64,000 nt of DNA from NCBI GenBank assembly GCA_051362555.1, contig CM120641.1, forward strand, positions 29,890,401-29,954,400, given 5' to 3'. This DNA is from Lingula anatina (taxonomy: Eukaryota; Animalia; Brachiopoda). The notes below the pieces were generated by a model. It made no database searches. It was given only the letters and a program-made list of their open reading frames with translations, and was not told the DNA's origin. Positions 5,091 through 32,700 of this stretch are shown here, piece after piece. Numbering within the stretch: the first letter of the stretch is position 1; every line of letters begins with the position of its first letter. Position numbers and translations under genes: made by a program.

Positions 5091-5108
5091 ATGTCTTATC
5101 GACTCTAA
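5091..5108 (+). promoter_or_regulatory. Five-codon upstream ORF (MSYRL*) overlapping the XPO1 start codon
   Basis: ATG TCT TAT CGA CTC TAA inside exon 5081-5233; its TAA overlaps the main ATG (TAATG, 5106-5110). Confidence 0.55.
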
Positions 5109-8100
5109 TGCCTCCGGCCAGTATGACAGCTTTGACAGAACAAGCAACAAAGTTGCTGGACTTCAACCAAAAACTTGATATCAATTTGCTTGACCATGTT
5201 GTGGGCTGCATGTATAGTGGCGAAGGACAAACAGTAAGTACGGTTCTTTCTTTGTTATTGAAGTCTTTATGATGGGGTATACCAACCCGCTTAATGCCAG
5301 ATGCTGCTGTCACACCACGAGTCCTGAAGTGGCCAATTTTGTGAAAGACTACTGGTAGTTTTCATCATAAAAATGACTCGGTATTGATGCTCAAATAAAT
5401 GTCGAAATGGACAAGGTGGGTATCAGTTTCTTAGCCACTCCTTATATTGGCAATTTAATGACCTTGAATTTGACATTGACCTAATTTTTACCATGAACTT
5501 GTCTTTGGAAATTAGCAGAGACATAAACATAGTTACTATTGAACTTGAATAGTGACTCTTAATGTGACCTTGGAATTTGACATTTGACTTATTAGTGACT
5601 TAGTACATTTTTTAGCCCATATTCCTCTACAACTAAAACGTGCATCCATAGCTACCATTTAATTTCATTGAGCTTAATCATTTTAAAATTTGGTGTTGAT
5701 TTTGGTGTTAAAGGGATAATAACTCTTCGTTTCCGCCATAAAATGAATTTTTCTGGAGTAAACAACAATTTTCCCATACTTACCAATGGTTAATGAATCC
5801 ATTTTTACATTCAAAGTTAGTCCCTGGTTTTTTTCTAAAAAGTTTGGTTTTTTGTTAAAATCCCTTAAGAGATTATAACAGAGTTACTCAGTATAGCCAT
5901 CAATGGAGGTCACGTGGTCAATAGACAAGCTCAGATATCAGAAAAAATAGCTACAACTGCCGTTTTTGTGGTAAAACAGAATATATTATATTTCTACGAG
6001 TTATTCGCAATGTTTTTATTGTGAAATGTAGATCTCACACTAAGAGTTATTATACCTTTAAGCACTAGGTAAAATTGCATCAAAACCAAAAAACTGTTTT
6101 GTGTATCATCATTTGCTTTTATGTCAGTACAATTTACAGCTTTGCTGCTTGTCTTTCAGTAGGCCTATGAAAGTCACATGCCTACGAAAGTTATCTGTAA
6201 AGTCGATTTTCCCAATTATATGGCTTATTTTTATGCATTGGTGTTGAAAATATAATGTGTAAGCCTTTTGGGTGCTGCCATTCGATGGGCACTGTTAATG
6301 ACAGGGTTTGGCAATTTGTGTTTGTTTGTGTGTATATAAAATATTGAAGCGGCAATCATAAATATTGATACATATGAGCAATTATGCAATTATATTAATT
6401 TTATAATTTTTCCAAACTTATACATGTATATAAATTTTATTTTTTCTTAAGCAACGTGTGGCCCAAGAGGTGCTTACAACACTGAAAGAACACCCAGATG
6501 CATGGACCAGAGTAGATACCATTTTGGAGTATTCAAATAATCAACAGACAAAATATTATGCCCTACAGATACTTGAAAATGTAATAAAAACAAGATGGAA
6601 AGTTCTGCCAAGAACTCAGTGTGAAGGTAAGGGTGTCTGAAATTACAGATAAGAACCCTAACTTAGTAGTCAGTTTTGCACCTTTGTAGATGAAATGTTA
6701 TTAACCATAAAGTATATTGGGATAATTTTGAAGCATTGCTTTGTAAATATCACTTTTTTTATTATTTTCTAAGAAGCAAATAGAGCACCTACTTATTAGA
6801 TATGATCAACATGATGACTGCTAAACAATGAGTTCATTTAACATTTGCATATGAAGTTCATGGCTATATTTAGAATAAAGTCAAACAATCATTGAAGATC
6901 TAATTTTAACAACATAAAGCATAAATTTTTAAATTGTTTCTCAAACAATTATTTTCATCAGAGGTCGGTGGGTAAAAAAAAAAACATATATAAATTATGA
7001 CGTTATCGTCGTTATGTTTACTAGTAAAAGAACATTTTAGACAATGATAACGCCCATTTTAACTAACTAAAGTCATATCTCAAAACAATAAAAACAGTGA
7101 TTCTTATTCAAAACAAGCCGGTTGCTTGCATGTAAATTTTAATCTGAAAGAATCACTCTGGTATTTTTTTTCATCAGAAACAGCTCGACTTTCCTAATAG
7201 AAATAATTTGTTCCTTAAAATGATAATAAAAGTGAGCTTACAGTTAATACCTCTATGGTTAACATGAACAGGCTTATTATTCAAACCAAATGACTGTTGA
7301 AAGTTATTGCCAAGCTAATAATAATGCAAATAATAGCAATAAAACAGAAACCCTACTGACCTTTTTACATATTACATTTTGTCTGTCATAAACTTTAAAC
7401 CCAGCCTAGTGGCTGGAGAATTGCTTGTACATATGGCTGTACATAGACTACTGCTTTAGCCTACATGGTTCTCCTAGGCCATGTTGCCTTCATTTGACTT
7501 AATATATGTTAAAATATTAATGAAGCGCTGATTGGCTAAAAAAATGAATCTGTAGTTTACTTGGGCTTAAATGACCTTGGCATTGAACTTACACAGTCAT
7601 ACGGCATGTGACAACTGTAAAAAAAGTTTTCATTTTATTTTATCCCAAATTGAACATATGATCAGTCAGACATTGTTAAAAAACAAAATAATAATTATTT
7701 TGGGCTGAATCTTATTTTATTTCTGTTCTGGCTATTTTGAGTTGATGGTAATTGAGAAATAAGTAATTCAAAATTATCTGCCTAAGAAGATTTTTCACCT
7801 ACTTTTTAACAAAGCATAAGCAGACAAATATTGTTAATATTACATCAAGGTTTTTGTTGATGGCAAACTTTACTATTTTGTCCTTTTGAATAATTTGCCT
7901 TCATATGCACAGACCAGTAGGTTTTTGTGGATACTAGGTTGAATCATATAATCATAAATCTATATGATGAACAGAAAAATGACCAGGTGTGTGCTAAAAT
8001 TATTGGGAGGTAGAAATTGTCCTTATGTAAGATTTTCTCTTGCTTATATGTTATAATAAGTGCAAAATTCAAAGATGGAGTGTTAAACAAGTAAGAAACG

Positions 8101-10971
8101 AGGAACAAAAAAATAACAGTAGTGTTCCCTCGACTTAGAAAATGGGAACTCGGGAGGTTAAGTAAGATAAGAGATCTCTTAGAGGTTGTCAGTTTGAAAA
8201 AATGCGAAATTAAAGTAAGTGGAAAATCTTGAAATTGGAACCAGTTAATTCCGGATTTGGAGTACTAGAATGGACCAGTTTCTTGAAGATATATGTCGAA
8301 ATGCTTTTAGTCTTGTGCTGTATAGAAAGTGGTAAAGGGAGAATATATTGAAGAAGTTAAAGATATATATTTAATTTGATTTTTTTTAAAAAAAAAGATA
8401 CTATTTCAAAATTAACTGTACAATATTTATTTATGCAGGTATCAAAAAATACATTGTGGGTTTAATAATCAAAACGTCATCAGATCCAGAAACACTAGAA
8501 AGAGAGAAAGTGTACTTGGGAAAGTTGAACATGATACTTGTACAGGTGGGTTTGTGTGTGGAATAAAATAATAAGGAAAAAAATGTAATATTGCTAAGTG
8601 TGATTACATTACTGAACTTATTTGCACTGACCCAATTTACCTCCACCACTATTACGGTTTGTTTGCTTAATGGAATTTTCCTACAATCACATGCTCATGT
8701 GGTGACAACTAGTGCTGTTTGTAAAGATTACTGGGCATGTTTACAGCAGTTTACTTATGCAGCAGTTATAAAGTTAACTTGTAATGCCATGTGAATTGTG
8801 TGTTTTGATAAGATAATTTTTTGGTTTGTTGATTTTTTGTGTGGCTGTGGGGACATGTACTTTATCCTTAACCACCTATCCATTAGATCTCCATTGTGTT
8901 CATTACTCCTATACTACAAGATAGATTTAGTTAATGCTTACACTTTTACTTGTGTTTTTATGCAGTTGTACTTACTTGACACTGACTTTTACTTTTGAAA
9001 ACATTGACCTACCTTCCACAATAAGCTGAACTTTTCCAAAACTAGAAGAGATCTACCCATTGTTGTTAATAAACTTCAATAGGAGATCCTTTATAAATCC
9101 AAAAGCAACCTTGAATTTTACCTTTGACCTACTTGCCGCAAAAAACTAGTCTCTTGCCCTTGTATCTCCAAAACAATAAAAGATACACCTATAATTGCTG
9201 TTGAAATCGAATTTTAAGTAATCGGGGATTCAAATCACGCCTTGAATTTGACTTTCCATCTACAGTGAAATTAACTTTTCCAATTTTCTAGCCCTTATAC
9301 CTCCAAAACAGAGATAAACCTATAGTTACTATTGAATTTGAATAGGAAGTAGTATATTTGGAATTCATATGTGACATCCATCACCAAGAATTTTACTTCT
9401 TGATCTACTTTCCGTCATTAAATTCACTTTTCCAATTTTCTAGCCCTTATATCTCCAAAGCAAGAAGAATTAAAACCCATAGTTCTATTGAATTATAACA
9501 GGAATTCGGATATTGAGATTTCATATTTTAGCTGGAGGTACACAATAACAATTATTTCTTGCAATATTAGACATGGGCATATCAGATTACATGCATGCAA
9601 AAATTGCACATGACAGTGATTTACAGACTTACAGGAAACCCTTTTTTCTTTGACATTCTTTGTCACCCTGTTGGTCAATACAGCAAGTTATTTGAAAACA
9701 AGTCAATATTGTACCTTCAAGCTTTGTAGCAAGTCTTGATATCATATGCCCCATATTTTACTGGTATTCCTTGCTCAACATGCCAGAAAAACAATTATTA
9801 TGTTACCATGCTGTTGGAAAATCTGCGTCGACTTGGCACTCATGTCTATTAGCTCCCGTGTTATTCCAGCTAAAAATGGCCAGCCAGCTTCACTTCCTAC
9901 ACCAATTAATGTCACAACTCCCAGCACAACCTAACACAATCTGTCTTATCCAAAGTCCTTCATTTACTAGTCCTTATATCTCTAGTGATACAAATTGTTA
10001 ATGATGGTCATTATGTGTGTTGATTGACACAACAATATACAGTGTTTTGCCATGTAATATCTCATTTAAATTATTTTGAAAGATCTTGAGATATTTCTTC
10101 CATCTTTCAGATTTTAAAGTATGAGTGGCCAAAAAATTGGCCTTCTTTCATCTATGATATTGTGGGTGCAAGTAAAACAAATGAATCCCTCTGCCAAAAT
10201 AACATGGCAATCCTCAAAATTCTCAGGTAAGTATATCATGCAACTTTTCCACTGTGTGGAATAGTGACCTTCACAGATGTCAAATTTGATCAAAGCTCTG
10301 TCATTATTTGAAGCATTTGTTGTATAATTATTAAAGATACAAAGAGCTACTTTTCAGTAACTTACTTAAAATGTGGCAATTAAAAAAATAAAAAGGTTGT
10401 TTGGCACTAATGTGATTTTTGATCATAGGTGAAATGAACATTGTGCAGAAAGGTCATTTAGCATATGATAAAATATATGCAATATTTTGATACAACAACA
10501 GTATGTTTATAAATTTTTTTATTTGATAAATATAATTATTTCTCAGTGAGGAGATCTTTGATTTCTCAAGTGGACAGATGACACAGGCCAAGGCCAAACA
10601 TTTGAAGGACAGCATGTGTACAGAATTTGCTCAGATTTTCACATTGTGTCAGTTTGTTCTGGTGAGTTTCACAATATTTTGCAGAATCATATATCAGTAG
10701 TTTAAAATTAAGAGATGGTGCTTGGAAGACTGGAATTGAACATTAGCTTGGTGGATGTATGATATAATTATGGAAAATGTTAGTTTACTTTTTTAAGGCC
10801 CTTTTGTTAACGATAAGCTTATACATGCAGGATAACTCGCAGAATGCCCCGCTAGTGGGTTCCACGTTGGACACTTTGATGAGGTTCCTAACCTGGATTC
10901 CTCTTGGCTACATATTTGAGACAAAACTCATAACCACACTCATTTATAAGGTAGGTTTTACTGATTGTTAA

Positions 10972-11059
<88 letters not shown>

Positions 11060-14000
11060 TGTGCATAGCATAAAAAGTGTACTTCAGCATCTTTGAAAAC
11101 ATTAATGAAATGCCAAAGGTAAAGTAAAAGTGAATAGGCTTTGATTTGGGAGTCAAATCATTTTTGTGTACTGATGTTGTTGAGGCAAAAGTTGCAGATA
11201 ATTTTGAGAATTAAAAAAAATCTACCATTCATCTCTGTATGTATACCGTTTCCTTTGAATTGGCTATATATATCCAGCTTTAGGAAGTATCACAAATTTC
11301 AGATATTTTAATTGGCCTAAGGTTGCCCTTCGATCTTGGCCTATTGAATATATGGCTCCATTGTTATGTGTTTACCTTTTATCTCTGGTCATTTCTAGGT
11401 CATCATTTTTGATGTAGTTTAAATCTTTTTTTTTTTCCTAGTTCCTAAATGTCCCGATGTTCAGAAATGTCACCTTAAAATGTTTAACAGAAATTGGTAA
11501 GTCCAATAAATGCTTATGATTTAAAATGCATTATTTCTGGGCTTTACACCATTTACATCATTAAATAAAATATTTTGCAAAGACTCGTGTTGTTCTGTAA
11601 TGAATTTTTAACCATTGTTTGCAGTAAGAATTTAACAGTAACTGAAGTAAAAACAATAGCACCTGTGTCATAGTAAACATATCAAAATAAGTGTACTGTT
11701 TTGATTACAGCTGGTGTTTCTGTCACACAGTATGATGAACAATTTTTACAGCTCTTTAATCTGACTATGACACAGCTTAAACAGGTATGAGTTTTTTTTT
11801 TTTTTTTTTTTTGTCTTTATTTTTACAGAATTTCATCTCTTTGTTATTTTCTTCTAAAAAAGATTATAATTTGTAACCATTTATTGACATTACTGTTATA
11901 TATATATTTTTTTTATTTTGTGAAAGATTATTTAGTGACTCTTTTTATTATTGACTTGCAAATTAAGCTTTTATTTTGTAATTGCCAATTTTCAGATGTT
12001 GCCCACCAGCACAAACATCAAAGATGCCTATGCTCATGGTCAGGATGATGAACAAAAGTTTATTCAGAACTTGAGTTTATTCTTGTGCACCTTTTTAAAG
12101 GAGCATGGCACTTTGGTAGAAAAAAAGCAAGAACTTCATGATGTATTAATGGAGGTAAGCACATTTTTATTTATGTACATTATGTGCTACGATTGTAGTA
12201 ATAAAGTAAGTACAAAACAGTACATTTGTTTACAAGAATTTTGACCTGAATTTGGTATTTAATATTGTTTGTGCATTTTATTTTACAGGTTTCATGAATG
12301 TAGAAATTGTTATTAAAGATGAACATTTTGTTTTAGGCTTTGCACTATTTGATTCTCATCTCTGAGGTGGAAGAGACTGAAATTTTTAAGATCTGTTTGG
12401 AATACTGGAATACTTTAGCTGCTGATCTGTACAGAGAAAGTCCATTCAGTGCTAGTCAGACTCCTCTGCTTATTGGCAGAATGGCTGACGTACCACCGTC
12501 TAGGAGAGCTCTTTATACTCCTGTGCTTTCAAAGGTTTGTAACAAAATGTAAAACTTAATGTTTTGTGATATACGTCTTGTTTAAATAGATAGAGAATTA
12601 GAGTACTGGAGTAGTGTGGTTTTATCTTAAAACCACCCTGACTAAATCAACCGTCATATGTTGGTTGATACAAGTCATGATTAATGCATCAATCTTCACT
12701 CCTTGCATTTTCATAAGATTAGCAGCCAGTAGATGCTTAAATTGAAAACTTTCAAATTTTAATTCTGTTAATCCTACAGAACTCTTGTTTCATTTTGTAG
12801 GGCTTGTCAAGTGCAATACTAGGAGTTTGTTCTTATCCAAAGTTATTATTGTATCGCCACTCTGAACCCCTAGTTTCAAAATCTTTGGTCCAGCTAACCT
12901 TTAAAAGAACATCTCAAGTAATCAGTTCATATGTGTTTAACAGTAAATGTTACTTTCTGCATTGCTTATTTTTTTTAAAGTGTACATTTTGGTTATGCCT
13001 AGGTGAGGCGGGTAATGATCTCAAGAATGGCCAAGCCAGAAGAGGTGCTAGTGGTAGAGAATGAACAGGGAGAAGTCGTGCGTGAATTCATGAAGGACAC
13101 AGATTCTATCAATCTGTATAAAAACATGAGAGAGACTCTTGGTGAGTTGATTTTGTATTTAGTATTTAACCAAATAATAATGCATTTATGCATGCATACA
13201 GGTGCAATAAAATAATAAAAGAAACTAGTTAAAGGTACATAAAAACCGAGCATCGGTGGAGCGTGGATTCCCAGTAACACATGTAAACCACTTTACTAGA
13301 TTCTTATATGGCTCAAATGAATTTGACATGTTAAGGGATAAACTGAATAGATCTCTCGATCAGCCATAAAAGACCTTTAGACTGCTCCTTTCTTTAAATT
13401 TATGGTTGTAAATTTAACCTACTTTCGTGACCTACTTTCCTGCCCCATTGACATACAGCTTAGAATGCCAGCAGAAAAATCTGTTCAAACATCATTTTCG
13501 GGTAAAATTAAACAATGCCTTTTGGTAATTCTCTTAGTTATACTACTTGAAACTATATGCTGGCATTTGGTTGGTTTTTGTAACAAAAAATTGACTTTGT
13601 ATGCATCTTTAAGTCTGTCCTAGTATGAATAAGATTATTTTGTATGTCATAACTATTTCAAATGTTAGCATTAATTATGAAAAGGCACTGTATTTGTACA
13701 GTATTTATAGAAAATTTAGTGTTGGTCGACAGCCTTTTTGTACGACACTTAAAAACTTCAATTCTGTAACATATTTTTTCCCCTTTCAGTATATCTTACT
13801 CACTTAGATTATCAAGACACGGAAAACATTATGACTGAAAAATTGACAAATCAAGTGAATGGTACAGAATGGTCTTGGAAGAATCTGAATACAGTAAGTA
13901 GGATATATGTATATCATTTTATGGACAACTTGTCTGGACAATTAGCCATTACCTGCATTTGCCGTCATACCATTAACATCAGACTTGACTTAAGCAGGCT

Positions 14001-14990
14001 TGTACACTTTCTTTGCTAACATCTTAAATGGCAAAAAATGTGTTGGTTACATTTCACATTTGAAATGACTTATTTTACTTCCTAGCATCTTGTTTACATC
14101 CTGTGAAATGTTTATCATTCCTTCGTGTCTTTCTGGCATATGTGAATCCTTTTCCTTAACTCATCAAATATAAGAAACGCCAGTAAAAATTTCAGCTATA
14201 GATAAATTTTGTTATGTTGGCTGTATAGTTGCCTGCTTTGCTGTCTAGTTTAAAAGTATTTGATATTGCTTCAGTTTAGGACGGCTGTAAATAAAGTGTA
14301 CTAAGTAATACAAAATTTCAAGATCTGGGTGATGAGAAACTTGATGAGAAAAAAATGGTTTTGAATGTATTGGGACGCTGTCATGTTTTAATAAAATGTT
14401 TTTTGTTTAATTATGTTATACAACGTCTAAATAACAGCAGTTATCATTGTAGTAATACACATTGGATGTTTTTTTCTCTTGTATTTATCATGCTGCTTCT
14501 AGTATGTGTATGTGTAAATTTTTTTTGTTTGTTTTTTTTAGCTTTGCTGGGCTATTGGATCTATAAGTGGTGCTATGCACGAGGAAGATGAAAAGAGGTT
14601 TCTGGTCACAGTAATAAAAGTAAGTTTGAATGTTTTCTATGTAGATGTGTGCTCATTGACAAGTTAAAAGATATACTATACAAAAGCAGAAATGTTCTTA
14701 TAAAAGCAAAGGTTAAGTGTGGAAAAAAGTAAGCAGTTTCAAACATTTTCAAAAATTTGACATTATTGGAAGTTTTAGCTTTTCCATTCATAAACATTCA
14801 TCTTCAGTAAATCGACCTTAAGACAGTGTGTTTTATAAGTCTTTTCAAACTGACCAAAGTCCTGAAATAAATTACAGTCTATCAAGGTAGATGAACACGA
14901 TGGTTAAAATGGAAAAGCCAAAGCTTAATTTAAACATCAAAGATGGTGCAATGACATACTTTTTATGTTTTCCACTTAGGGCCTTAAAAA

Positions 14991-15074
<84 letters not shown>

Positions 15075-16903
15075 AAATTATATTATATCTGATAAGTTTT
15101 CCACCATAATATACCTCCCTTGAATACTCTTGTCAACCTGCATTATTAAACTCTTGTCTGTTATTCTTTCCTAAAGAAAATTAAGTAATGATATAACAAC
15201 TATGAAGATTGTGGGAAGATAAATGTAAAGCACAAGTAGGACTCTTCAAGAAAATAGATAATGATAACAATAGATAATGGTTATGATGTCAATGCGGGGT
15301 TAAAAGCAGAGGAATGTGTCCAGTGTTGTCAGATTAAAAGCTTAGGTTGGCAGATGTATGAATCCCGCCCTTATGTCTTACACCCATTTGTTTTCCCACC
15401 CTTCAGGATTTGTTGGGTCTGTGTGAGCAAAAGAGAGGGAAGGATAATAAAGCCATCATAGCCTCTAACATAATGTATGTGGTGGGGCAGTATCCCAGGT
15501 TCCTACGAGCACATTGGAAGTTCCTGAAGACAGTTGTTAACAAGTTGTTTGAGTTCATGCATGGTGAGTATTACCTTGTCATTGATTCCGAGGTTTTATT
15601 CCATTAGGAGTTACTGGGTTTGGTTGAGCAAAAGCGGGGCAAGGATAATAAAGCCATCATAGCATCCAACATAATGTATGTGGTGGGGCAGTATCCTCGA
15701 TTTCTTCGAGCTCATTGGAAGTTCCTCAAGACAGTTGTCAACAAGTTGTTTGAGTTCATGCATGGTAAGTGAAAGCTTGTTGACAGAAGTGCTTTAGAGG
15801 ATGGGGTGAAATAAGGTGTGGCACTTTCAGAAATTTTTTTATTAGTGTTGTGTACCAGCATTTTCATTTCCTTTGAAATGATGCCTTTTTGCCAAATTTT
15901 GGATTTGCATATTGAAGACAGTGTTGTTATAAAGTAGGAACCTCTGTAGTGTATTTATTTGGTATTTATCTCTCCATTTATTGTAAAAGATGAACATGCT
16001 TCCATTTGCTGTAGAAACCCATGATGGAGTGCAGGACATGGCGTGTGACACATTCATCAAGATTGCCCAAAAGTGCAGGCGGCATTTTGTACAGGTTCAA
16101 GTGGGAGAAGTGATGCCATTTATTGAGGAAATTCTCAACAGTATTAACACCATAATATGTGACTTGAATCCACAACAGGTACATCAATGTAGTATATGCC
16201 TGCTGGTTTTAAGTAATTGAGAGTGCTAATTAATTGGTATTCTTGGTTTCCTGTTTTTCTTGTCAGTTTCTGTAAAACGTCGTGTGCTTAAAGTATTGTC
16301 TGAAATATCAGGTGCTATTATTTTAGATACGTGAATTCAGAAGTAAAATGTGCAGGGTTTTTGGCAGGTTTATAAAATCTGAAACAACCTGGTACTGTAC
16401 TTTATGACATACTAAAAGAAAATGTTTAACATTATCCAGGTGCATACTTTCTATGAAGCTGTGGGTCTTATGATCAGTGCACAAACAGACCAGGCAGCTC
16501 AAGAGCATCTGGTGGAAAAATATATGATGCTACCAAACCAAGTGTGGGACACAATTATTAATCAGGCTACACAGAATGTAGAGGTGCTGAAAGATCCAGA
16601 GGCAGTGAAACAGTTGGCCAATATTTTAAAAACCAATGTTCGAGCATGCAAGGCACTTGGACATCCATATGTATTACAGGTTGGTGAACCTTTTTGTCAA
16701 ATTTTTATGGCCAGACACTGGTGCACTATATTCTGAGAATGATTAGAGCTTAAAATGGTTGCTTATATGGAAGGAGTAGTCCCAAATATTTGCATGCATT
16801 TATCTTCAATTGAAAACAAAAGTGTACAACAATATCATTTTTTTATTTACAGTGGTAGCAAATACTTAAAGGTTTGTGGAAGGAACTCGTACATGCTTCC
16901 CTG

Positions 16904-16939
<36 letters not shown>

Positions 16940-19900
16940 TAACTAGTGATTATGCTAATAAGTATCATTTGTAATATTGCATCAATATTGAGAAAATAGA
17001 TTTCGTGCAATTTCATCTTTCTTCTTCACGTTTTAGTGTCACTGTATCTTATAGTTTGGACACTTTTATGTCTGTTCATTTGACAGCTTTTACTGAAAAA
17101 GTTTATGGTATTTGTAAAATTATTCAGTATTTTTTGTGATACTTGAGAAATTTCACTTGATGAAATTTCTGTTGAATTATTTTAAATTTCAGATATTTTT
17201 GTCTCGTGATATTTTAAATCTTCTCAGATTATAATGATGTATAAGGAAAAATATTATATACTTACTGTAAAAGCATAACTGGTTTTGTCTTAAATTTAGC
17301 TTGGACGTATTTACCTGGATATGCTGAATGTGTATAAAGTGATGAGTGAAAACATCAGCATTGCCATTGCAACAAACGGAGAGAATGTAACCAAACAGCC
17401 TCTTATCAGGAGTATGAGAACTGTGAAAAAAGAAACACTTAAACTTATCTCAGGATGGGTCAGCAGGTCTAATGACTCCCAGATGGTATGATTGCCCATT
17501 CATTGCCTTTGGTCTTTATGTTAAATTAAATGGAATATAGCTTGATGTGTACATTGTGCTTAAAGTATTGAGTATGATAATAGTTACTTTGACAAGTGAA
17601 GTTAGAAAAAAGGAAAAGTAACAAATAGATTTCTTGTGATTAAGTGCAATATCAGTACCAGCACTCCTGATATGTTAGACATTTTAGAGAGTGTTTATTC
17701 TTTATTTGTAATTGTATTGTCCTTTGGTTTAATTTGCAGTTGGTAATGTTATTTAAAAGTGATCTGTATTTCAGGTTGCAGAAAACTTTATCCCGCCTCT
17801 TCTTGAAGCAGTTTTGATGGACTATCAACGAAACGTACCACTTGCAAGGGAACCAGAAGTGCTAAGCACAATGGCAACAATAGTCAATAAATTAGAGGTA
17901 AGGCCAGATGATTGATACATGAAAAAATAATTCTACCTACCCTGAGGTTTCGAGTAAAACCAACACAAGCAGCTGTTATATATAATGCCTACAGGTAACC
18001 AGGTAAAATCCAAGCAAAAGAAGAAGAAAAAATACATTGGATAGCAATTTTATATACAATCATTGTATGTGTTATTAATATTTAGATCCCTCTGTCTGTC
18101 TATGTGATCATTGTTCCCATTGCCATCCAAAACACCAGTCCTTACTGGGGTGGCCCTAGCAATTTTTTCCTTTAGCCAAATTACTACTTTTTCACTGCTT
18201 TTTTTGTCCAAATGGTTTAAATTTGACTAAAATGAGTCAAATCAACCCTAATATTTTAGCCAATTTCAGTCAGTTTTAGCATTTGGCTAAATTGGCGAGT
18301 GTTAGCGCTACCCCAGCCTTAAAACTGCAATATCATATTTTTGTTTATTTTAATATACATTAGTAAGGCAGGTTCATTTTGATAATTGGCATGATTGGAC
18401 ATGTGTGTATCTCTCACACTGTTATATTATAGAAATAAAGTAATGATTGTAACTGATATTGATCTGCCATCTTGGAACTGGGTGTATGAGTCAGTCTCAT
18501 GGCATTTTTAAATGTTTCCAAAGATATGTCTGTGTCTTTCTTTCACTGTAACAGTTATTATTGAGAAATTAATAAAGTTTTGATGTTAAAGTCCTGTGAA
18601 AAGTTATAGACACTTGGCAAACTTAGTTCATAATGCAGAGGCTATGTCGTCTGTGTAGTCCATCCCAGGCATGCTCAGTGAGAGACATGTCTGGTGTAAA
18701 TGGAAGCCACGGAAGAGTCTGGTGTTGGTCCTGCTGCAGCTACACCTGTGCTATCTTTTAATGTTGCCAGTTTTGCTGTCTGCATGTTTGCCGCTTTGCT
18801 GTCTTGTTAAAGTTTTTGTTGTTAAGATCTACTAAAATGTAAATGTGTATTTGCATGGGGATGGGTTAAGGGAAATGTTTCCTAAATAGAATTTATGTTA
18901 AACTCGTTTACCCTTTTTTTACAGGGCAGTATAACTAAAGATGTTCCACAGATATTTGATGCTGTGTTTGAATGCACATTGGAGATGATCAACAAAGATT
19001 TTGAGGAGTTTCCAGAACATCGAACAAACTTTTTTCTCTTACTACAAGCAGTAAATTCTCATTGTTTCCCTGGTAGGTATCTGGATTTTAAGAATGCAGC
19101 ATTTGTATTATTATGCAAATTGTACTATTATAAATTGTTGTATCCAAACAAGTTGATGTGTTGGGATGTTTGGCTCATGACCTAGTTAAAATCCACTATA
19201 TACTAACTATTCAGAACTGAGCCCCTGAATATGTATGCTCTGACAGTGCCCCTTGCTGCAGTGCACAAGATGGATAAATGAATGAAGGCTAGCGCCCTAA
19301 AGTTTTTCAGCTAGAAAGTGGCTGTTCAGGCTGGTGTCTAGTCTTAATATGCCGAAGGTGCAAGTGAACCAAGACTATGGAGCTTAGCCTTGTGTCACTT
19401 TATGATCATTAAGTGACCTGCTGCAGCTGCATGGTAAACAAAAAAGGGGGGTTTGTGGGTTTCAGTTGGTAGTAATACTTAAAATTTGTGAATATAGTGT
19501 TGCTGTGAACCAAGTGATATTGGTAACAAAGATGGTTATTTAAGTGAACTGTTATCAGCTGCAAGCTGAAGAATTAACACTTTTGTTATTATTAACTATT
19601 TTTATAATTTTTTTACATGGCCCATCTACTTATTTCGAAATACCACTATTTGAAAAAATGCACATGCCAATCTTGTAAAAGGAATCCTTACATGCGGTTA
19701 TACCAACATAGACACTGCTAAATAAAAAAAAAAACCTAGTCTTTCATGTTTTCCGTCTATTGCAGCTTTCCTCGCCATACCACCTGCACAGTTCAAACTA
19801 GTGCTGGACTCCATCATCTGGGCTTTCAAGCACACCATGAGAAATGTGGCCGACATGGGACTGAGCATCATGTACACATTGCTACAGAATGTTGGGCAGG

Positions 19901-21090
19901 AGGAAAATGCAGCACAGAGTTTCTACCAGACCTATTTTACAGACATACTGCAGCATATCTTTTCTGTTGTAACTGACAGTTCACAGTCAGGAGGTATGGG
20001 TATTTATCAGTTTGATGGTCAATAAATTGTACCACCAGTCATTTTTCTGGCAATACCTTGGCTATGACCTGAAACACTGAGTATGACATTGTCCTTTTTT
20101 CAAAAATTTTAAATATAGCTTTGGCAACAATTTAGAGCATTTTTAAAAAGCTTTTTATGTGTATTATTATCCCTTAAGTGTGTCTTATCCAGCTGGTGGC
20201 AGATATCCAGGAGACATTATCTCCTCTATGATCCTCTTAGATATGTATTTTCAGCTCAAATTAGATTTTGTTCTTTTTATGTATTTTTACATATGTTTTT
20301 ATTACAGGTCTCACAATGCATGCCAGTATATTGGCATACATGTTCACATTGGTGGAGATGGGCAAGATCACCGTTTCACTTAGTCCAAACCACCAAGCAT
20401 CTCAAAATGTACAGTTTGTACAAGAATTTCTTGTTAATCTGCTAAAAGCTGCCTTCCCACATCTGAATGAGTGAGTACCAATACTTGTATTATATGCTTT
20501 TTTCATACAGGTATATATCTTTCTATAACAACTCTTAAAAGTTGGTATTCATACTTTTTTTTTTTTTTTTTTGCAAAGATCTATAATTTAACCCCAGACT
20601 TAAATTCTGTGATACATTTCTTGATGTTTGTTGCAGTTAGTGTTACTCATGTGGTATTTTTTTAAGAAATGAATTTGAAAGAAATGATGCATTTCAGTAC
20701 GCAGTTGCGAGTTTTCATTGAAGGGCTGTTCAGCTTTGACCAGGACATTCAGGCTTTCAAAGAACACCTTCGTGATTTCTTAGTGCAGATCAGGGTAGGT
20801 GGCACCCTCAGCATAATCAAATTATGATGATGATATGATAAATTAAGTTGAAAATATTGATTTAGTAAAACACAAAGACATGGCATAGTTAAGGTGAAAC
20901 CAATCAATATATCTTATCTAATTTTATTTATTATTATTGGCAGGAGTTTGCTGGGGAAGACAATTCAGACCTCTTTCTTGAGGAGCGGGAGTCGGCTATT
21001 CGAGAAGCTCAGGATGAGAAGCGAAAGCAACAGATGGCAGTTCCAGGAATACTGGGTCCTCATGAGGTAACAGAAGACATGCAGGACTAG
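5108..21090 (+). CDS. XPO1: Exportin-1 / CRM1, 1072 aa, 23 coding exons
   Basis: Exons: 5108-5233, 6452-6626, 8439-8545, 10111-10226, 10547-10661, 10831-10950, 11442-11496, 11711-11784, 11996-12154, 12337-12534, 13003-13141, 13790-13893, 14542-14619, [15407-15563 or 15608-15764], 16015-16178, 16440-16679, 17300-17485, 17775-17897, 18925-19072, 19766-19993, 20308-20470, 20698-20794, 20944-21090. All GT-AG, phases consistent, total 3219 nt. Hallmark peptides: [29 protein letters not shown], acidic loop [61 protein letters not shown]. The first coding exon begins at an acceptor (5081), so a 5'UTR exon lies further upstream and was not located. Confidence 0.97.
5712..6057. mobile_element. TTAA-flanked MITE (Kolobok-like AG..CT ends), copy 1
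   Basis: TTAA-AGGGATAATAACTCTT ... AAGAGTTATTATACCT-TTAA. A closely similar copy in opposite orientation is at 52110-52447 and a decayed copy at ~23040-23225. Confidence 0.85.
8975..9510. repeat. Degenerate tandem repeat (units roughly 130-150 bp) in an XPO1 intron
   Basis: Recurrent TGACCTACTT, ACTTTTCCAATTTTCTAGCCCTTATA(C/T)CTCCAAA and CCTATAGTTACTATTGAA blocks; related sequence at ~5450-5680. Confidence 0.6.
10976..11056. repeat. (TA)n microsatellite
   Basis: Uninterrupted TA run. Confidence 0.95.
13233..13608. mobile_element. TTAA-flanked MITE in an XPO1 intron; uninterrupted copy of the element split by Tc1 at 38.6-40.6 kb
   Basis: TTAA-AGGTACATA ... TATGCATCT-TTAA. The internal sequence aligns by eye with ~38640-38848 plus 40501-40575. 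Confidence 0.75.
14996..15069. repeat. (TA)n microsatellite about 340 nt upstream of the XPO1 alternative exon pair
   Basis: Uninterrupted TA run. Confidence 0.95.
15407..15563 (+). CDS. XPO1: XPO1 alternative exon A (canonical, Cys528), residues 523-574
   Basis: cttcag|GAT TTG TTG GGT CTG TGT GAG ... ATG CAT G|gtgagt; 157 nt; [52 protein letters not shown]. Confidence 0.95.
15608..15764 (+). CDS. XPO1: XPO1 alternative exon B (variant, Glu523 and Val528), tandem duplicate of exon A
   Basis: ccattag|GAG TTA CTG GGT TTG GTT GAG ... ATG CAT G|gtaagt; 157 nt, same phases as exon A, no stop; [52 protein letters not shown]. Confidence 0.9.
18145..18316. mobile_element. Short MITE in an XPO1 intron
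   Basis: Imperfect inverted termini CTGGGGTGGCCCTAGCA / TGTTAGCGCTACCCCAG; CCTTA on both flanks. Confidence 0.55.
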
Positions 21091-23787: not shown

Positions 23788-26700
23788 TCAAAGATTCACA
23801 ATCTCCACCTGAAATGAATATCAGCAATGCTGATCAAATGGAAAATACGCTAGACAGCATATGATGTATACATGATTTTGAAAAAAAAATCAGTAAACAC
23901 TTAAAATCTATTTGTAGTTGATAAAGAGTAAACTATTGGTGACAGCAAATGGTATTTAGCTTTTCAATTCCTACTGGAAAATAATAACTGGATAAATATA
24001 AAGACAAGAAAAGGAAACTTGCAATGACTTGACACTTATCACATCATTAACAACAAAAGTAATGGCTATGCAGTTTGCAACTCTGTATAATAAAAGTTAT
24101 GCATGCCAGATGATGGTGCAGTACCATTTTTTGTTATCTTGGTCAGTTTGTTAAAATAAACCCATAATACATTTTGTTTGGGTTGGCATAAATAATTTTT
24201 AAAAATGGCCTCAACTGGACAAATATAAATCGACTTTATATCGCGTTTGTCAACTTTTTTTTGAAAATTGATTCCAATACTACAGGAGATGGAGGAGATA
24301 ACAACGTATTTCATCTAATGAGTCACACTCCTGCTTCAACATACCTGATATCCTTTGTCTGCAGGTTCAAAGCCAAAGACTTTGGCAAAGAAGTAGAACT
24401 CCCCATCTAAGCATTTCTCTATATTTTCAGACTTTCTGAAACCATGTTGTTCTCCTACATATAGATTAGAAATCAATTATTTACACATCTCACAAAGAAA
24501 TTATATTTAATGTTGAAATATCTCACTCTTTAAGTAACTAAACTGAAGCAATTTTAAAAAAATCTTTGATACTTTCATGTAAACGTAATTTCTTTGGATA
24601 TATAGAAAAACCTGTGTAAATTCATAAAAATAATCAATGAGATAGTTAACCCTCCGGGTAAAATAATACTGTTATATGTTCTCAATGTGAAAACAAGAGA
24701 AATAAAATTGAACTGAATTGAATTGGAGATGGCATATCCCAAAGTGTTAGATACTCAATACTAAAAATTGCGGTTATGGCCGCAAGATTTTTGAATAAGT
24801 TTTCACAACTTTAAGACATTTTAATGTTAAAATATCAGTTTTAATAATATGAAATGTGTCTTTTTAAAATATTCTACAAAAGTTAACATTTATGAAATAC
24901 ATCATTAAAACAAAGATACAGATACCATGTTGCCAAGTATACTTTGAAATATTTTTGAAACTTAAAAAATGCATCACAAAAATTCTTTATTTGTTCACCT
25001 TCAAACAATACATGTGCTGCAGGGATCCCTTTGGCTTTGATTTCGTCAAACATAAGTTTTGCTTGGTTTGGTGGAACAATCTAAAAGATAAGGGAGTAAA
25101 TAAAAGAAATTGGGGATTCAGAGGAAATCTGTCATCTACTGTATATGAATTTGATTAATATCATATTACAAAAGACCAAAACTTCAAAGATGCAAATGTC
25201 CAAATTTCCAGTGATACCCCCTTTACACTGGACGGCGTCCTTTCTGCGAACATGAAATTTGGCATCGCTGTGGTCTTAATAAGGAGGCACGAGCATCGAT
25301 TTTGAATCAGAATGGATGCTCAAAGATCGGCCAGTTGTCGGCACGTAAAGTATTATAATTTTTAAACTCTCAAATGAGGCCATACTGCTGGACGCAGAAA
25401 GGACGCCCTCCAGTGTAAAGGGGCCCTTAGTCTATAAGATACACATAACAATTTGAAACAAGCATGATTAAGCATGCATTCAAGAAAATATCCACAGAAA
25501 CAAAAGATGTGTGTGTGTGTGTGCGTTTTTAGCAGTACCTCATCTTCATCTCCTTGAAAGAATATAATTGGACAGTTAAATTTTTCAATATGTTTGATGG
25601 GAGATCTAGAATCATATATTGGGTAGTTTTCCGGGGTATATGGAGCAATGCAGGTGTCCAAATAACGGCTCTCAAATTTGTGAGTTTCTCCAGCAAGCAG
25701 TGCAACATCAGCCACACCATAAAAGCTGCAGCCTGGAAAATTGAATGATCAAAAACCCATTAAGATGTAGCTCCATCAAAGGGAAGCGTTACTTTTGGGA
25801 AATTAAAAAAATGCATAGAATAATTTCAAGTCATTTGCAGTCAGTTTCTGTGCATTTAGATCATTCTGGCATTAATAAGAGAGATTGTAGTTATCAATCA
25901 GGTAATGGCACCACAATCAACTTCAAAACATCTTATGTTCACTGTAACTTGATTGTATGTACCAAGCTGACTGTAAGCTAATGGTGTGGAAAACTTCCAG
26001 ATTGTACTAAATAATTATTATTATTATGTGATCCAACTACCAAGCTTATAAATATTTTTGCTCATTTATTAATCTGGTTATTTTAGTCAAAACAAGTCCC
26101 ACATGTGAACATGGTCTCATAGAAATATTACCTGCTTTGAAAACATCTCTGAAAGCCAGGCATGCCAGTGTGGTGTATCCCCCAGCTGAACCTCCATCAA
26201 TACACAGCTTATTCCTGTCAACTTTTCCCTGATCAGCCAAGTACTCAGCACCATGACAACAGTCATCAACATCATAAACACCCCAACTGAATAGGAAAAA
26301 GCAATTCTGTATTTTAGATCGTGTATTGTGTAATAAAGTGTCAAAAAAGTGGCAACAGCAATGACACAAACACATACGTTGCTCAGACTAGATACAAGCA
26401 CAGTCTATACATAAAAAGTTTACAATCTTTAGAGGTCTACCTACACTTTATTCAATGTCTTGAACAGAGCACTTTGAATACATTAATTTAATTGCCTTCT
26501 CACTTTCCATTAAGCAGCCCTCTATAGGTTCTCCCATAGCCAGTGCTCCCTCTGTAGTCTACGTCCAATACAGCAAATCCCCTGCTGGTCCAGTACTGCT
26601 GCTTCATATTCAGGGCACTGGAGGCACAGGAAGTAGGGCCTCCATGTGCACGAACTAAAAGTGGTGGTAAGCTATTTGGAGGTGCTTGAAAGTCCTTGTT

Positions 26701-29700
26701 CTAAAGTAAAACAAGGCAGTTGATGTGTTAAAAGTATAGACATGAATCAGAAAATTACAATGTGAGTGAACAATTTAGTTTTTTTGTCAATTTTGATGAA
26801 ATATTACATAATGCTTTACAGCATTATCACAACATGATAACATGGACATTCATAAAATGTAATTAGCATTGGGCTTCAGGCTTATGGGATTTCAAAGTCA
26901 CAACTTGCAATTGCTTATTTGTAGAAAACATATGTCAGTTTACAGGAGATTACAAAATCTTGAAATTGGCAACATTGACATGATGTAAAATGTTAATTAT
27001 AGGTAGCTTTATACCAAATTATTCATTCCTTTTCCATATGCAAGTTATTTTATGGAGTGAAATAGACATGAAGTGGCAAAATTAGTGTAAATATCATTCA
27101 CTTCATGTTTCTACCACAAACGTTTTTTTTTAACTTCATGGTAGTTGATAGCTCCTTCACACCAATTAAAAAAAAAACAGTCAAATAGTCCAGGAGGAAA
27201 AATAATATTTGCCATTTTATAAATGACCATTACCTTAGGAAGATAAAAGTATCCATATACTGACTGTCCTCCGGCAGTTGGCCAAGTAATTTTTTCTGGT
27301 ATGCTGATGTATCCACGGTCCACAGGGAGCTTTGCAGACTCCTTACATATGTCTAACTACAGAAGACAAAAAAGTGACTGTTTCTCTGATTACTTGGAAC
27401 AAATAACACTATGCTAAGTAACACAGTTCCAAAATGGTTCATGCTTATATATATATATATATATATAACAATTCTTATTTTAAAGACCCATCTGATGTAA
27501 ATTTTTTGCCATAAAACCTGACCAAATGGAACTGTATACTTTCAATTAGCATAACCAAAAAATATTGTTACATATTTCCTAGTAGAAGTGGTTTTTGTTA
27601 CAGGGAATCAACACTCGCTTCCTGTATCTTTAATAAATATTAGTAAGAATTGATTTAATTATGTAATTAATAAATATCTAATAATAATGAGAAATGGGTA
27701 AATTAATAACTTAATTAATAAGCAATTAATAATTTTGAGAATTATGACGAAATTTAAAACTGTTCAATTTCTACACAGTAAGCTGAAAGTGTACCTGAGA
27801 GCTTATGTCCCAACACATGGGACTTTATCAGTCACACTGAAGTTATGTGTATAGTGAACAGCTGTGAGAAAGGTTGTGCCTCACAAGCAACTTGCTACAA
27901 ACAACAAACTATAAATTTGCTTATCTAGCCGTTCAGTACATGACCTATTCTTACCTTCATGAATTCTTACCTTCCCAGATTCAGCATTGACTCGAATTAC
28001 ACATGGGAATTGTGTTGGGCTGGACGCAATACAACAAATATGTCCATCATGTAGGTAGTTGACGTAAGAATGGTTCTTAAACCCTGTATCCAGAGGCACT
28101 GTAGTTTTTGTTTTTGGATCTAAGATGCCCAACTCCTGAAAACAATACAACATATCCTTAAGATGATGGTTCCACCAAACCAAAACATACTCCTATAGGA
28201 TAAAAATGTTATCCCCTTGGTTAAAAACTCATAATAAAATTTCACCAACTAGAAATTTACATTTAATTAAGGGTCAGGATAACCCATGGAGCTTGTTCCT
28301 CTGAGAAAAAAATTTGCACAATGCAGATCACAATGTCCATGTATGCATTACGCCAATGTATAAATATCTGAGTGTTGATAAACAGTGTACAATCCAAATT
28401 AATGCTCAAAATTTAAAATATACAGTAACAGTTGTCTTAAAATTAGATTTTGCAGTGGTCAAGTCGCTCATAAGTTAAGGCTGGTAAACTGACCAATCAG
28501 CACATGCGCAATTCTAGTTAAAATTTGGTTGAATTATATTCAGCAAAGAGAGACAACAATTGCTATTCAGGTGTGAAACCTGGATTGTTTACAGCAAAGA
28601 ATTGTAAAGAAATATTTCATTTTTGTTACCTTTTTGGCAGTATGCGGCCAATCTTATTCCAATTTTTGCAACTACTTGTGTTCAAATTAATGCATGGGGA
28701 ATAAGTTTGTGTACAAGTTCTGCATTTTAAAATTTCCATTTTAGTGTGACCTTTGTAGGTCAGCCAAAACTTTGTCACATTACTTTGAGAAATTGATACG
28801 GTGACTCAAGGGCGTTTTTTTTTTAAAGTAAATCTGGATTTTTCTTGAAAACAACTTGTATAGCATTGTTATACATAGTTTGTCATTGACATGGAACTAG
28901 TAGTTATGTGAAATTACTGACACAACTGCAGTAAAACAACATGCGATACAAGTACAACATGACAAAACATGGATGGAAACATCCAACAGATGAGAATATT
29001 TTACTTCGTTCCATTTAATAGTTGTTTAACAAGATTAATCTATACTCACCCCTCCACAGATAGTAGCAATTTTACCACTACCACATGGATCCACGGCATA
29101 TGCATATCTTGCAAACGTCCAGTGAGGATTCCCCACTTCCTCTTCCTTCAGGGACAAGTTAACATGCTCACCAGATGGCACCACAGTGTAAAGGTTCCAC
29201 CACTCTGTCTGATCTCCAAGGTACAGTAACTGGTTGTCCACTGTCCACCCAGGGTACATCACACTAATTCCCTCACCTCCTGCTACCTGAGAAAGACAAC
29301 CACTTTCAGTAACATAACAAGACAATTGGCAAATGTACTAGGGCTATGAATAAGATAAGTGCCATGTGCACAGCCGTAATTCATTTAGACCATTAAAAGC
29401 TTCAATTCAAACATAACTTTTATGTGAAAAATAAGAATCTGGATTCATAGGATAGAATATTGTTGTCATCATCACACTGATGCATGCAAATGACATAACT
29501 GATAAATAAACAAAAAGGTTAGGTTTGAAAATGGATAAATAGTTCTGTAACATTTTCCTACTTGCACTTTCATTTTTGTTACCTTTTTGGCAGTGCCAGC
29601 AACTACTTGATCCCCTATTAAGTCTGCCATCCATATCTCAGTATTGTCCCATGGCTGAAAATAGTTTTGTGATCAATAATTGCACTGGGGAAAAATCCAG

Positions 29701-32700
29701 ATATATATATTTTACAAACTGACATTCATCTAGCACATAAATCCAAAATATTTCACCATTTCCCCAAATTATCCGTACTTATGTAAGGGTTAATATTTTA
29801 TATAACAAATGCTTGTGTGTCCCTAAAAGTAGTCCATTAATTCTTTATCCACACCAATATAGGCCATAACTATTCATAGCATTTATCTGTTTAAAAAATG
29901 ATCAAAAATTGGTGGTAACAATACAGGCAACTGTTGTGTAATATTGCATATAAATTGACAAATAAACAAGCTCCCATGCACCCGAATCCCTATGCTTACT
30001 AATAATTTCTGTATTTCCACTTACACAATAATACATATTCGAAAATTTATGATGTTGATGCTGTTAACCATTTTAGTGCACGATCATTGTTATTCACATA
30101 TTGAGATTTTCAGTGTGAATTTGAATTCCACGGGCCTGGAGCTATATTCTTATTGTTGGTATATCATGTTGTGCATTATCGAAATTTGGTGTTGATTTTG
30201 CTGTAAGGCATAATGTATTATCGCATCAAAATCGACAAAATTACCTATTTTGTGCATCATCATTTTCAGCTTTTTGTGTCCTATTTTTCTTATTGCTGAA
30301 AGCAGGATAAACAGTAGATCTAATGATCAGGAGTCCTCTTATTGAGGCAATTCTACAAGTACATTGTAAATTACTAATCTCATACCATGTTTGGATGAAA
30401 CCACTGCATCCAGCATAACTTTGTACCATCTGGTGACACTCTGGGACAGGAATAGAAGTCTGCTCCACTAGCCTACAAAATTAAAAACAATAATAAGAAG
30501 ATAAAAAATAAACACGTTCAGTTCACATCATAATAAATCATCAGCTCAGAAAGTGATATAATAATTTCCATTATAATTGTCATTCAAAACTAAAAAATTC
30601 AAAATATCAACAGTCAAAAGAGTTTAAAGTAAGAACAACGTAATCTTTTATTTAGTTTTGGAATTAAATGGGTGGCATCAACACAAAATGACATGTATAA
30701 AGAACACTTTGTTACACTATGCATAATAACCACTTATGAATATAACATTTACAAGAATCAAAAAAAGGCAGCAGTTAAAGAACGAATTGAAGAAACTGGT
30801 TCAGCAAAGATGGACTTATTACCAACACTTTCTGTTCCTGTGTTTCTAGATTGATAACAACTACAGTATTTTCCGCCTCTTTCCTGGACTTGTTCACAAC
30901 ACCACTGTGGTCTTCCCGCACACAGAAAATACAGTTCAGCTGCAGTGAAAAGAGTCAGCAAAACAAAGTAAATTATCAAGTTTTCACATGATCCATAGTT
31001 TTCATTTATAAGTAGAACAGAATTTTTTTAATGTAACTGTCCCCACCAAATGAAGATCTCATTGTGATCTACTTAGCATTGCAAGAGAAACACACAAAAA
31101 AATAAAATAATAAAATGATCCTATACTATACTACAGTATATGCACTTGAAAATGTCCCAAAATTACATTTCTATGTCGTAATATTTTGCAAATTTTCTCA
31201 CCAAAATTCATATTTAACAAATTTTCACAAGGTTAACAGCATTTTCCCTGACTTACCAACCTTTAACCTTCCTTTTCTGACACTCACCATGACTATAACA
31301 ATTTTAAAAAAGCAAAAAGATCTAAACCCCACTTAAACTGAGGTTTTCAAGATATGCCATTCATTCCACTGACATGAGGTCCAGATATTGTGGGACTCTC
31401 CTGCCTTGACCCACCTTATTTTCAAACTATGTCATAATTAAATGGCTGACTACTGAAGTTGGCAGGGGACGGCAAATATGACTATTTTTTTTAGATATCA
31501 AGTAAGGCTGTTTGTCTGTCAAAATCTGATGCTTATAAAGTTTTTAATGACCTCAAGTAAGTTCAAGAAGAAGCGAGTCATACATTTAGAATGGGTTCAA
31601 AATCCTGGCTTGGATTGCTTTAATTCTTCCATTTTGAACCTTTAAAATGATAAAATCTGTCAAGTTCAAGTACCTGATGTCCACATTTCCTTCTGAAATG
31701 TCTGTTCAATTATTTAATTAAAATTGATATCAAAAATCAAATCAAAGTACAGACACAACGTCAAGCAATGATTCATAAGTAGCAGAAATTTGCTTTTTCT
31801 TGAGAGGTACTAGAATTGGCACAAGTATTATGTATATAGAATATGTTAAGCTGAAATGAAATAAAACTTTATCTCACTTTCACAGAAAACTGCCCATCAG
31901 CATATCTCCAACCACAGCCCTCTGGAGTGAGCGGTTGAGGGGGTTCACTTGGGCTAGTTTGTTTGTACAACCTCTGGTCAGCAAAATTTGAGAAGTATAC
32001 CACATCATTATGCACAATAAAAGCACCACCTCCATATTCATGGACTCTTGTTCTTGCATTAAAACCTTGGGGGGTCCATTCTTGTATTTCAACTCCACCA
32101 TCACCTCCAACAGAAGCAGAGCACACAACATATCGACCCCCTTCCTTGGGTCTCAGCTCAGACCAGTACACTGTAAGATTGGAAAATATATGAACAGAAA
32201 CTTGAAATTTGAATATCATTTACTTAGTGTTTACAGGCCAATGGAACAAAAGGACATTACAGGTATTTGAAAAATCAACAAATAAGCACTACAGACTGTG
32301 AGACATGAGCCTGTTTTTTGTAACAGTAAAACTGAACATTTATTGTGGAGATAAATCTGGCAACATAAATTGATCTTAGGAAGCATCAGAACTCAATCAC
32401 TGAATTATGTGGAAGAAGTACATGTCTTGCACTACAGTATATATCCAATGACCCCACCTATAACAGTTTATCAGTATGGGCTCTTTCGGTGCCAATGTTA
32501 CTGATTCACATTAACATACAGGCAGCATGTGTCAATTCTTTACAAGTACAAAATGTGCTGTTTATTAAGCATACGATTAAAGCTTTAGTTTGTCTGACTG
32601 CAGCACAAAAGAATTTAATTATATGGTAGCATTTCTATTAATGGTAGACTAATGTGCAGGCTCGTAGCTACCAATTGCAAAACGGAGCTTCTTTTTCTGA

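Follow-up and report, generated by a model that had tools for sequence, protein, structure and literature searches.

Mutually exclusive exons in Lingula anatina XPO1 encode either cysteine or valine at residue 528

The exportin-1 gene (XPO1, CRM1) of the brachiopod Lingula anatina splices in either an exon encoding Cys528 or a tandem copy of it encoding Val528, and both exons are expressed. The pair is a known splicing device, mutually exclusive exons, acting on an unexpected residue. The exchange of Cys for Val falls on position 528, where published reports place the covalent target of leptomycin B, the ratjadones, the SINE drugs and plant compounds (PMC6262578, PMC4752587), and it needs two base changes. 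An approved drug and several compounds from microbes and plants target Cys528, which gives the residue its importance, and the Lingula isoforms, two residues apart, lend themselves to asking why this cysteine has been conserved and at what cost it is lost.

The XPO1 locus and its twin exons

The window, by which we mean the whole 64,000-nt stretch of L. anatina DNA analysed, holds the complete XPO1 coding span (Table 1). The 23-exon chain has GT-AG boundaries at 22 of 22 introns and no internal stop, and its codon 523 is aspartate, so that the cysteine of exon A is residue 528. The exon peptide could be matched without gaps to residues 523–574 of the 1071-aa chain 3gb8_A, which we take to be human, and likewise to 4bsm_A. 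K568 and E571 are exon positions 46 and 49, the same in A and B; the sequence-only reading had placed the cysteine at 528 and these two residues in the same exon, as is borne out by the chain and by the ungapped match. The CRM1 domains PF03810, PF08389, PF18777, PF18784, PF18787 and PF08767 were found in protein P0061. Long (AT)n runs lie in two of the XPO1 introns, at about 10977-11056 and 14994-15069 of the window. A neighbouring gene, presumably peptidase S9-like, has exons with a GGSAGG motif at 25362-32219 on the minus strand.

Table 1. Features of the XPO1 locus, numbered from the first letter of the window
Feature	Position	Strand	Remarks
XPO1/CRM1 coding span	5108..21090	+	23 coding exons with one twin exon used; 1072 aa
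Common upstream exon, residues 497-522	14542..14619	+	phase 0 donor; joints lead to A and to B
Exon A, residues 523-574, D523/C528	15407..15563	+	157 nt; 60 entry and 36 exit reads, 4 runs
TGT, Cys528, covalent target residue in NES groove	15422..15424	+	exon A; role according to papers
Spacer between A and B	15564..15607	+	44 nt, GT..AG; no joint across it listed
Predicted exon B branch point TTGAT	15582..15586	+	A at 15585; 22 nt from A donor, 22 nt from B acceptor; motif match alone
Exon B, residues 523-574, E523/V528	15608..15764	+	157 nt; 30 entry and 9 exit reads, 4 runs
GTT, Val528, two base changes from TGT	15623..15625	+	exon B
Common downstream exon	16015..16178	+	phase 1 acceptor; joints arrive from A and from B

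Both exons are preceded by AG, are followed by the donors GTGAGT (A) and GTAAGT (B) and keep the same open frame. They differ at 19 nucleotides, and a recount returned the 14 synonymous and 2 non-synonymous codons of the sequence-only reading, the latter being GAT>GAG at codon 1 and TGT>GTT at codon 6; the peptides are thus identical at 50 of 52 residues. The excess of synonymous change, from which purifying selection on both exons had been proposed, is also upheld (NG86 dS 0.81, dN 0.025, ratio 0.03; binomial p 6e-9 against equal rates). A search of the 64,000-nt window for further copies of the exon found none. AlphaFold, run on the single sequence of the Val isoform, gave a model with a mean pLDDT of 45, which was left out of the conclusions.

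With exon A in place, the window protein differs at one residue, 418, from L. anatina exportin-1 isoform X1 in RefSeq (XP_013415269.1), and with exon B it differs at the same single residue from isoform X2 (XP_013415271.1); D523E and C528V are the sole differences between X1 and X2. A third RefSeq model, XP_013400816.1, departs from the window at 648. Because the window disagrees with X1 and X2 at 418 and with the third model at 648, it represents another haplotype. The RefSeq pair is the same two isoforms, given as automatic models without comment on mechanism or function. The earlier supposition that such exons had not been described for XPO1 thus stands for papers, none having been found, and falls for annotation, where the isoform pair was already present. 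The literature search, with supplements and most subscription journals outside its scope, found nothing on XPO1 twin exons, Lingula exportin-1 or a natural Val528, and neither 'C528V' nor 'Cys528Val' occurred among the matches listed.

Expression and either-or splicing

Use of the two exons was followed in RNA reads from four of nine listed runs, drawn from three studies (X1, X4, X7 and X8; X2, X3, X5, X6 and X9 were left out), 6-26% of each run being read. Reads were mapped to window positions 14450-16549, and a joint was listed when it had at least 3 reads from 2 starts. Entry joints into A and B numbered 46:13 in X1, 5:4 in X4, 3:10 in X7 and 6:3 in X8, and exit joints 24:2, 11:7, 1:0 and 0:0, respectively. 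Reads bridging the upstream exon and exon B were therefore present in 4 of 4 runs, and reads bridging exon A and the downstream exon in 3 of 4. At the same threshold and depth of sampling (at least 3 reads from 2 starts; 6-26% read), neither an A-to-B joint nor a joint skipping both exons was listed in the four runs, and read depth in the bin holding the spacer was about that expected from the portion of exon B in that bin. Mutually exclusive use, as the sequence-only reading had proposed, is supported by the junction reads for both exons, by RefSeq X1 and X2 and by the recurrence of the pair in a distant animal. A lack of reads into or out of exon B, named in advance as one outcome that would count against it, did not occur.

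The ratio of A to B across the four runs, compared without regard to tissue or condition, differed with p 0.002 by reads and, only weakly, with p 0.06 by distinct starts; with four of nine runs sampled, this variation is poorly measured. In X1, exon B made up 22% of the entry joints and 8% of the exit joints; X7 and X8 gave almost no exit reads. These last two runs carried several fixed differences from the window, yet the variants listed include none at the Val codon. In 29 of the 30 exon B entry reads, across all four runs, positions 15608-15610 read GAA in place of the GAG of the window, a synonymous change, and the G of the window at 15610 is either a rare allele or an assembly error. For the same 29 reads the entry joint was printed as 14620 to 15611 plus 'AA', which equals the normal 14619-15608 junction with GAA. 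Use of a NAGNAG acceptor at 15610 was considered and rejected, as the reads retain the Glu codon.

The spacer between the exons is short beside the 22 XPO1 introns in use, which span 149-1812 nt. A donor-to-branch distance below about 50 nt is described as a recognised mechanism of steric exclusion (PMC5740500, PMC7969005). Given a spacer of 44 nt here, and of 38 nt in the two metagenome contigs described below (L007 and L017), any branch point inside it lies less than 50 nt from the donor. Exclusion of A by B and the reverse is, from the sequence, most likely steric and backed by frameshift. With the donor of A and the putative branch point of B so close, U1 on A and U2 for B would be unable to load together. 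Joining A to B shifts the frame. The rare transcript with both exons, with neither or with the spacer kept would meet an early stop, which may serve as a second safeguard. Spacer retention was rejected as a functional form on account of a TAG stop at 15605-15607 on read-through, as was double skipping, where a stop falls at residue 555.

Among known systems, exons 4a/4b of OGDH (PMC7969005) resemble the XPO1 pair in being a duplicated exon with a donor-to-branch distance below 50 nt and in giving one isoform that responds to a small ligand, Ca2+ in OGDH, and one that does not, as is predicted for XPO1. The property switched in XPO1 is a covalent-target thiol. In the human atlas of mutually exclusive exons 57 steric cases are reported, and its main text holds no mention of XPO1 (PMC5740500). 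In the steric cases as described the intron is longer and its branch point lies far off, in contrast to the XPO1 pair, whose whole spacer is 38-44 nt.

The exon pair and residue 528 in other lineages

Metagenome contigs were scanned for acceptor-led exons whose 528 codon does not start in T, a design blind to TCN serine. This returned 23 loci, of which three (L005, L007 and L017) have Val and the other 20 have Thr at 528; the Thr loci we take to be fungus-like. Contigs L007 and L017 each contain a D-C exon, a 38-nt spacer and then an E-V exon, which is the full Cys-then-Val pair in a second animal lineage, and their best branch motif lies 14 nt from the donor. Absence or decay of exon B in close relatives, another outcome held in advance to weigh against the pair, did not come up in the comparisons made. 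The donor of exon B is GC in L007 (1498-1503) and at the same place in L017, and GT in the window.

At silent sites the two contigs differ from each other by pS 0.19-0.25 and from the Lingula window by 0.82-1.04, which is saturation. Between A and B, pS is 0.93 in the L007/L017 lineage (L007:1146-1497) and 0.49 in Lingula; five silent sites are common to species versus one common to exon type. The closer A and B of Lingula would be explained either by gene conversion that spared codons 523 and 528 or by two separate duplications. A WAVGS marker of L007 and L017 was present in none of 445 fetched proteins, and no other named brachiopod or phoronid XPO1 protein was among the matches. Among cluster members that carry the motif, 31 from molluscs and 22 from echinoids, holothurians and asteroids, no Val528 model occurred (one cluster covered for 15 of 17 members), though these are annotated gene models in which an exon could be missed; single bryozoan and annelid models and two hemichordate models have Cys only. 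As the mollusc and the echinoid, holothurian and asteroid models are all Cys, the twin-exon pair need not be widespread.

The motif could be recognised in 408 of the 445 proteins, a redundant sample enriched in Val by the queries, with Cys in 367, Val in 41 and nothing else at the first motif. E523 accompanies Cys528 in 77 of the 367, so D523E need not be functional. A profile search built on Val proteins only was dominated by vertebrate Cys proteins and added two with Val (P0319, P0329). In a FastTree tree of 62 proteins (midpoint root, no clade test), Val rows occupied six places, namely Lingula X2, Amphiura filiformis, Ephydatia muelleri, Adineta-type rows, a Brachionus-type clade of 10 and one non-animal row. 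As judged from sequence, either repeated independent origin of Val528 or an ancient exon pair with losses could give this pattern, and the midpoint-rooted tree does not decide between them. Val stands at 528 in A. filiformis (P0143) and in E. muelleri (P0153, P0305, P0306, P0308, P0309), with no Cys model of either among the matches; Adineta steineri has Val and A. ricciae has Cys.

In Brachionus-type rotifers, residues 1-695 of XPO1 divide into a Cys clade and a Val clade (99/99), and residues 705-1067 show no such split. Three Cys/Val pairs were compared (P0440/P0438, P0042/P0324 and P0114/P0234). Between P0440 (Val) and P0438 (Cys), the sole full-length pair found from one species, 83 of the 532 positions in the front part differ and none of the 363 in the rear part. 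In the named B. calyciflorus and B. plicatilis pairs the differences end at about 702, with an overlap of 15 and 29 residues beyond, and this end coincides with an intron position in the window gene. In these rotifers the Cys form and the Val form seem to be built from alternative 5' blocks on a shared 3' part, or else the models are chimeric assemblies. Whole-gene paralogy was rejected as the full account, the 3' parts of P0440 and P0438 being identical. Three algal gene models (P0020, P0033 and P0041; two of them named Spirogloea muscicola) have two copies of the groove helix in a row, the first with Cys and the second with Ser, which may be alternative exons that an annotator fused.

Cys528 chemistry and the proposed role of the Val form

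A C528V point mutant is said to have been tried once in a structural study, with NES binding kept. In published work, C528T and C528S blocked conjugation and degradation (10.1101/2024.10.07.617049), and the inhibitor-resistance data found at 528 concern C528S, C528T and C528A. Heterozygous C528S gave human cells a selinexor resistance equal to that of the homozygote, and C528S mutants grew slightly more slowly (PMC5356594). Prostaglandins, itaconate and NO are reported to modify Cys528, in a role stated there as not known, and at the ASB8 interface D523 was mutated together with five other residues (10.1101/2024.10.07.617049). The roles suggested earlier for the exon pair, resistance to toxins or oxidative stress or a shift in cargo preference, would fit this body of work, as we infer by analogy.

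We consider it probable that the Val form is a dominant, electrophile-insensitive isoform kept beside a regulatable Cys isoform. Lacking the thiol at 528, it is predicted to escape alkylation and nitrosylation there; 15 other cysteines remain in the protein, C585 among them. Its groove would not be closed by Michael acceptors, such as polyketides of the leptomycin or ratjadone type or derivatives of prostaglandin or itaconate; S-nitrosylation at 528 would be impossible, leaving the groove open; and the protein would not be marked for ASB8-type degradation. A partial pool of the Val form could then keep nuclear export running under electrophiles, as the dominance of resistance in human cells suggests that a partial pool suffices, and the ratio of A to B would set the extent of a cell's export response. 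To our knowledge, no natural XPO1 inhibitor has been described from the habitat of Lingula.

Val528 might instead serve cargo choice, reshaping the hydrophobic groove so as to alter NES affinity or preference, with loss of the thiol a side effect. The papers place residue 528 in the NES groove. Where Cys is replaced, all the animal proteins examined have Val and 20 of the 23 metagenome loci have Thr; as both residues are beta-branched, the position seems to demand a certain shape. The exon ratio, too, may vary between runs. However, the preference for Val or Thr is equally expected from selection for thiol loss with binding kept, and the other groove positions of the exon, 568 and 571 included, are unchanged between A and B, where a cargo switch might touch more; we regard tuning of cargo as unlikely. 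More improbable still is near-neutral redundancy, whereby the short spacer locked a tandem duplicate into either-or use and Val is tolerated drift. A low dN/dS is expected of any used exon in so conserved a protein, some animals seem to be Val-only (the A. filiformis and E. muelleri models), and A and B are closer to each other in Lingula than either is to the other lineage, pointing to homogenisation or a younger duplication. Yet one splice-site mutation could lose an exon, and the pair stands with the same two differences in two lineages saturated at silent sites; codons 523 and 528 escaped the homogenisation in Lingula, rotifers retain both forms by another gene layout, and Cys-to-Val takes two base changes.

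That exon B is an assembly artefact or a dead pseudo-exon is largely refuted and scarcely credible. The mismatch at 15610 in nearly all exon B entries could be read in its favour, but exon B-specific reads join both neighbours, the Val isoform in RefSeq stems from a haplotype distinct from that of the window at residue 418, and the tandem layout recurs in L007 and L017.

Beyond a dominant insensitive isoform in Lingula, a wider reading can be put forward tentatively, with one rather doubtful standing for all its parts together. Cys528 may be a natural electrophile switch, and eukaryotes may repeatedly have arrived at a single locus that yields two exportins, one switchable and one not: the twin exons of Lingula and the second animal lineage, the 5' blocks of rotifers and possibly the Cys/Ser tandem of Spirogloea. 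Exon choice would then tune the export response to microbial toxins, immune metabolites and NO, and E523 would also loosen ASB8-type degradation. If repeated retention of both forms is true, XPO1 would join the few essential proteins with target-site insensitivity, here by way of splicing.

The engineered C528S and C528T alleles share with the Val form the loss of the thiol at 528 (PMC5356594, 10.1101/2024.10.07.617049), and heterozygous engineered cells hold a mixed Cys/non-Cys pool, as Lingula would with its isoforms (PMC5356594). The Lingula form differs in being natural, in having Val rather than Ser or Thr, in arising from one gene by splicing and in being coupled to D523E. The duplicated Na,K-ATPase alpha of milkweed insects is, as described, similar in its substitution at the toxin-binding site of an essential conserved protein, with sensitive and insensitive versions both kept, and perhaps in the repetition of that substitution; there, gene duplication, known toxins and measured resistance stand against exon choice and a predicted resistance in Lingula. 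In practice, leptomycin B may not block export fully when used as a tool in brachiopods, in rotifers, in some brittle stars and in freshwater sponges.
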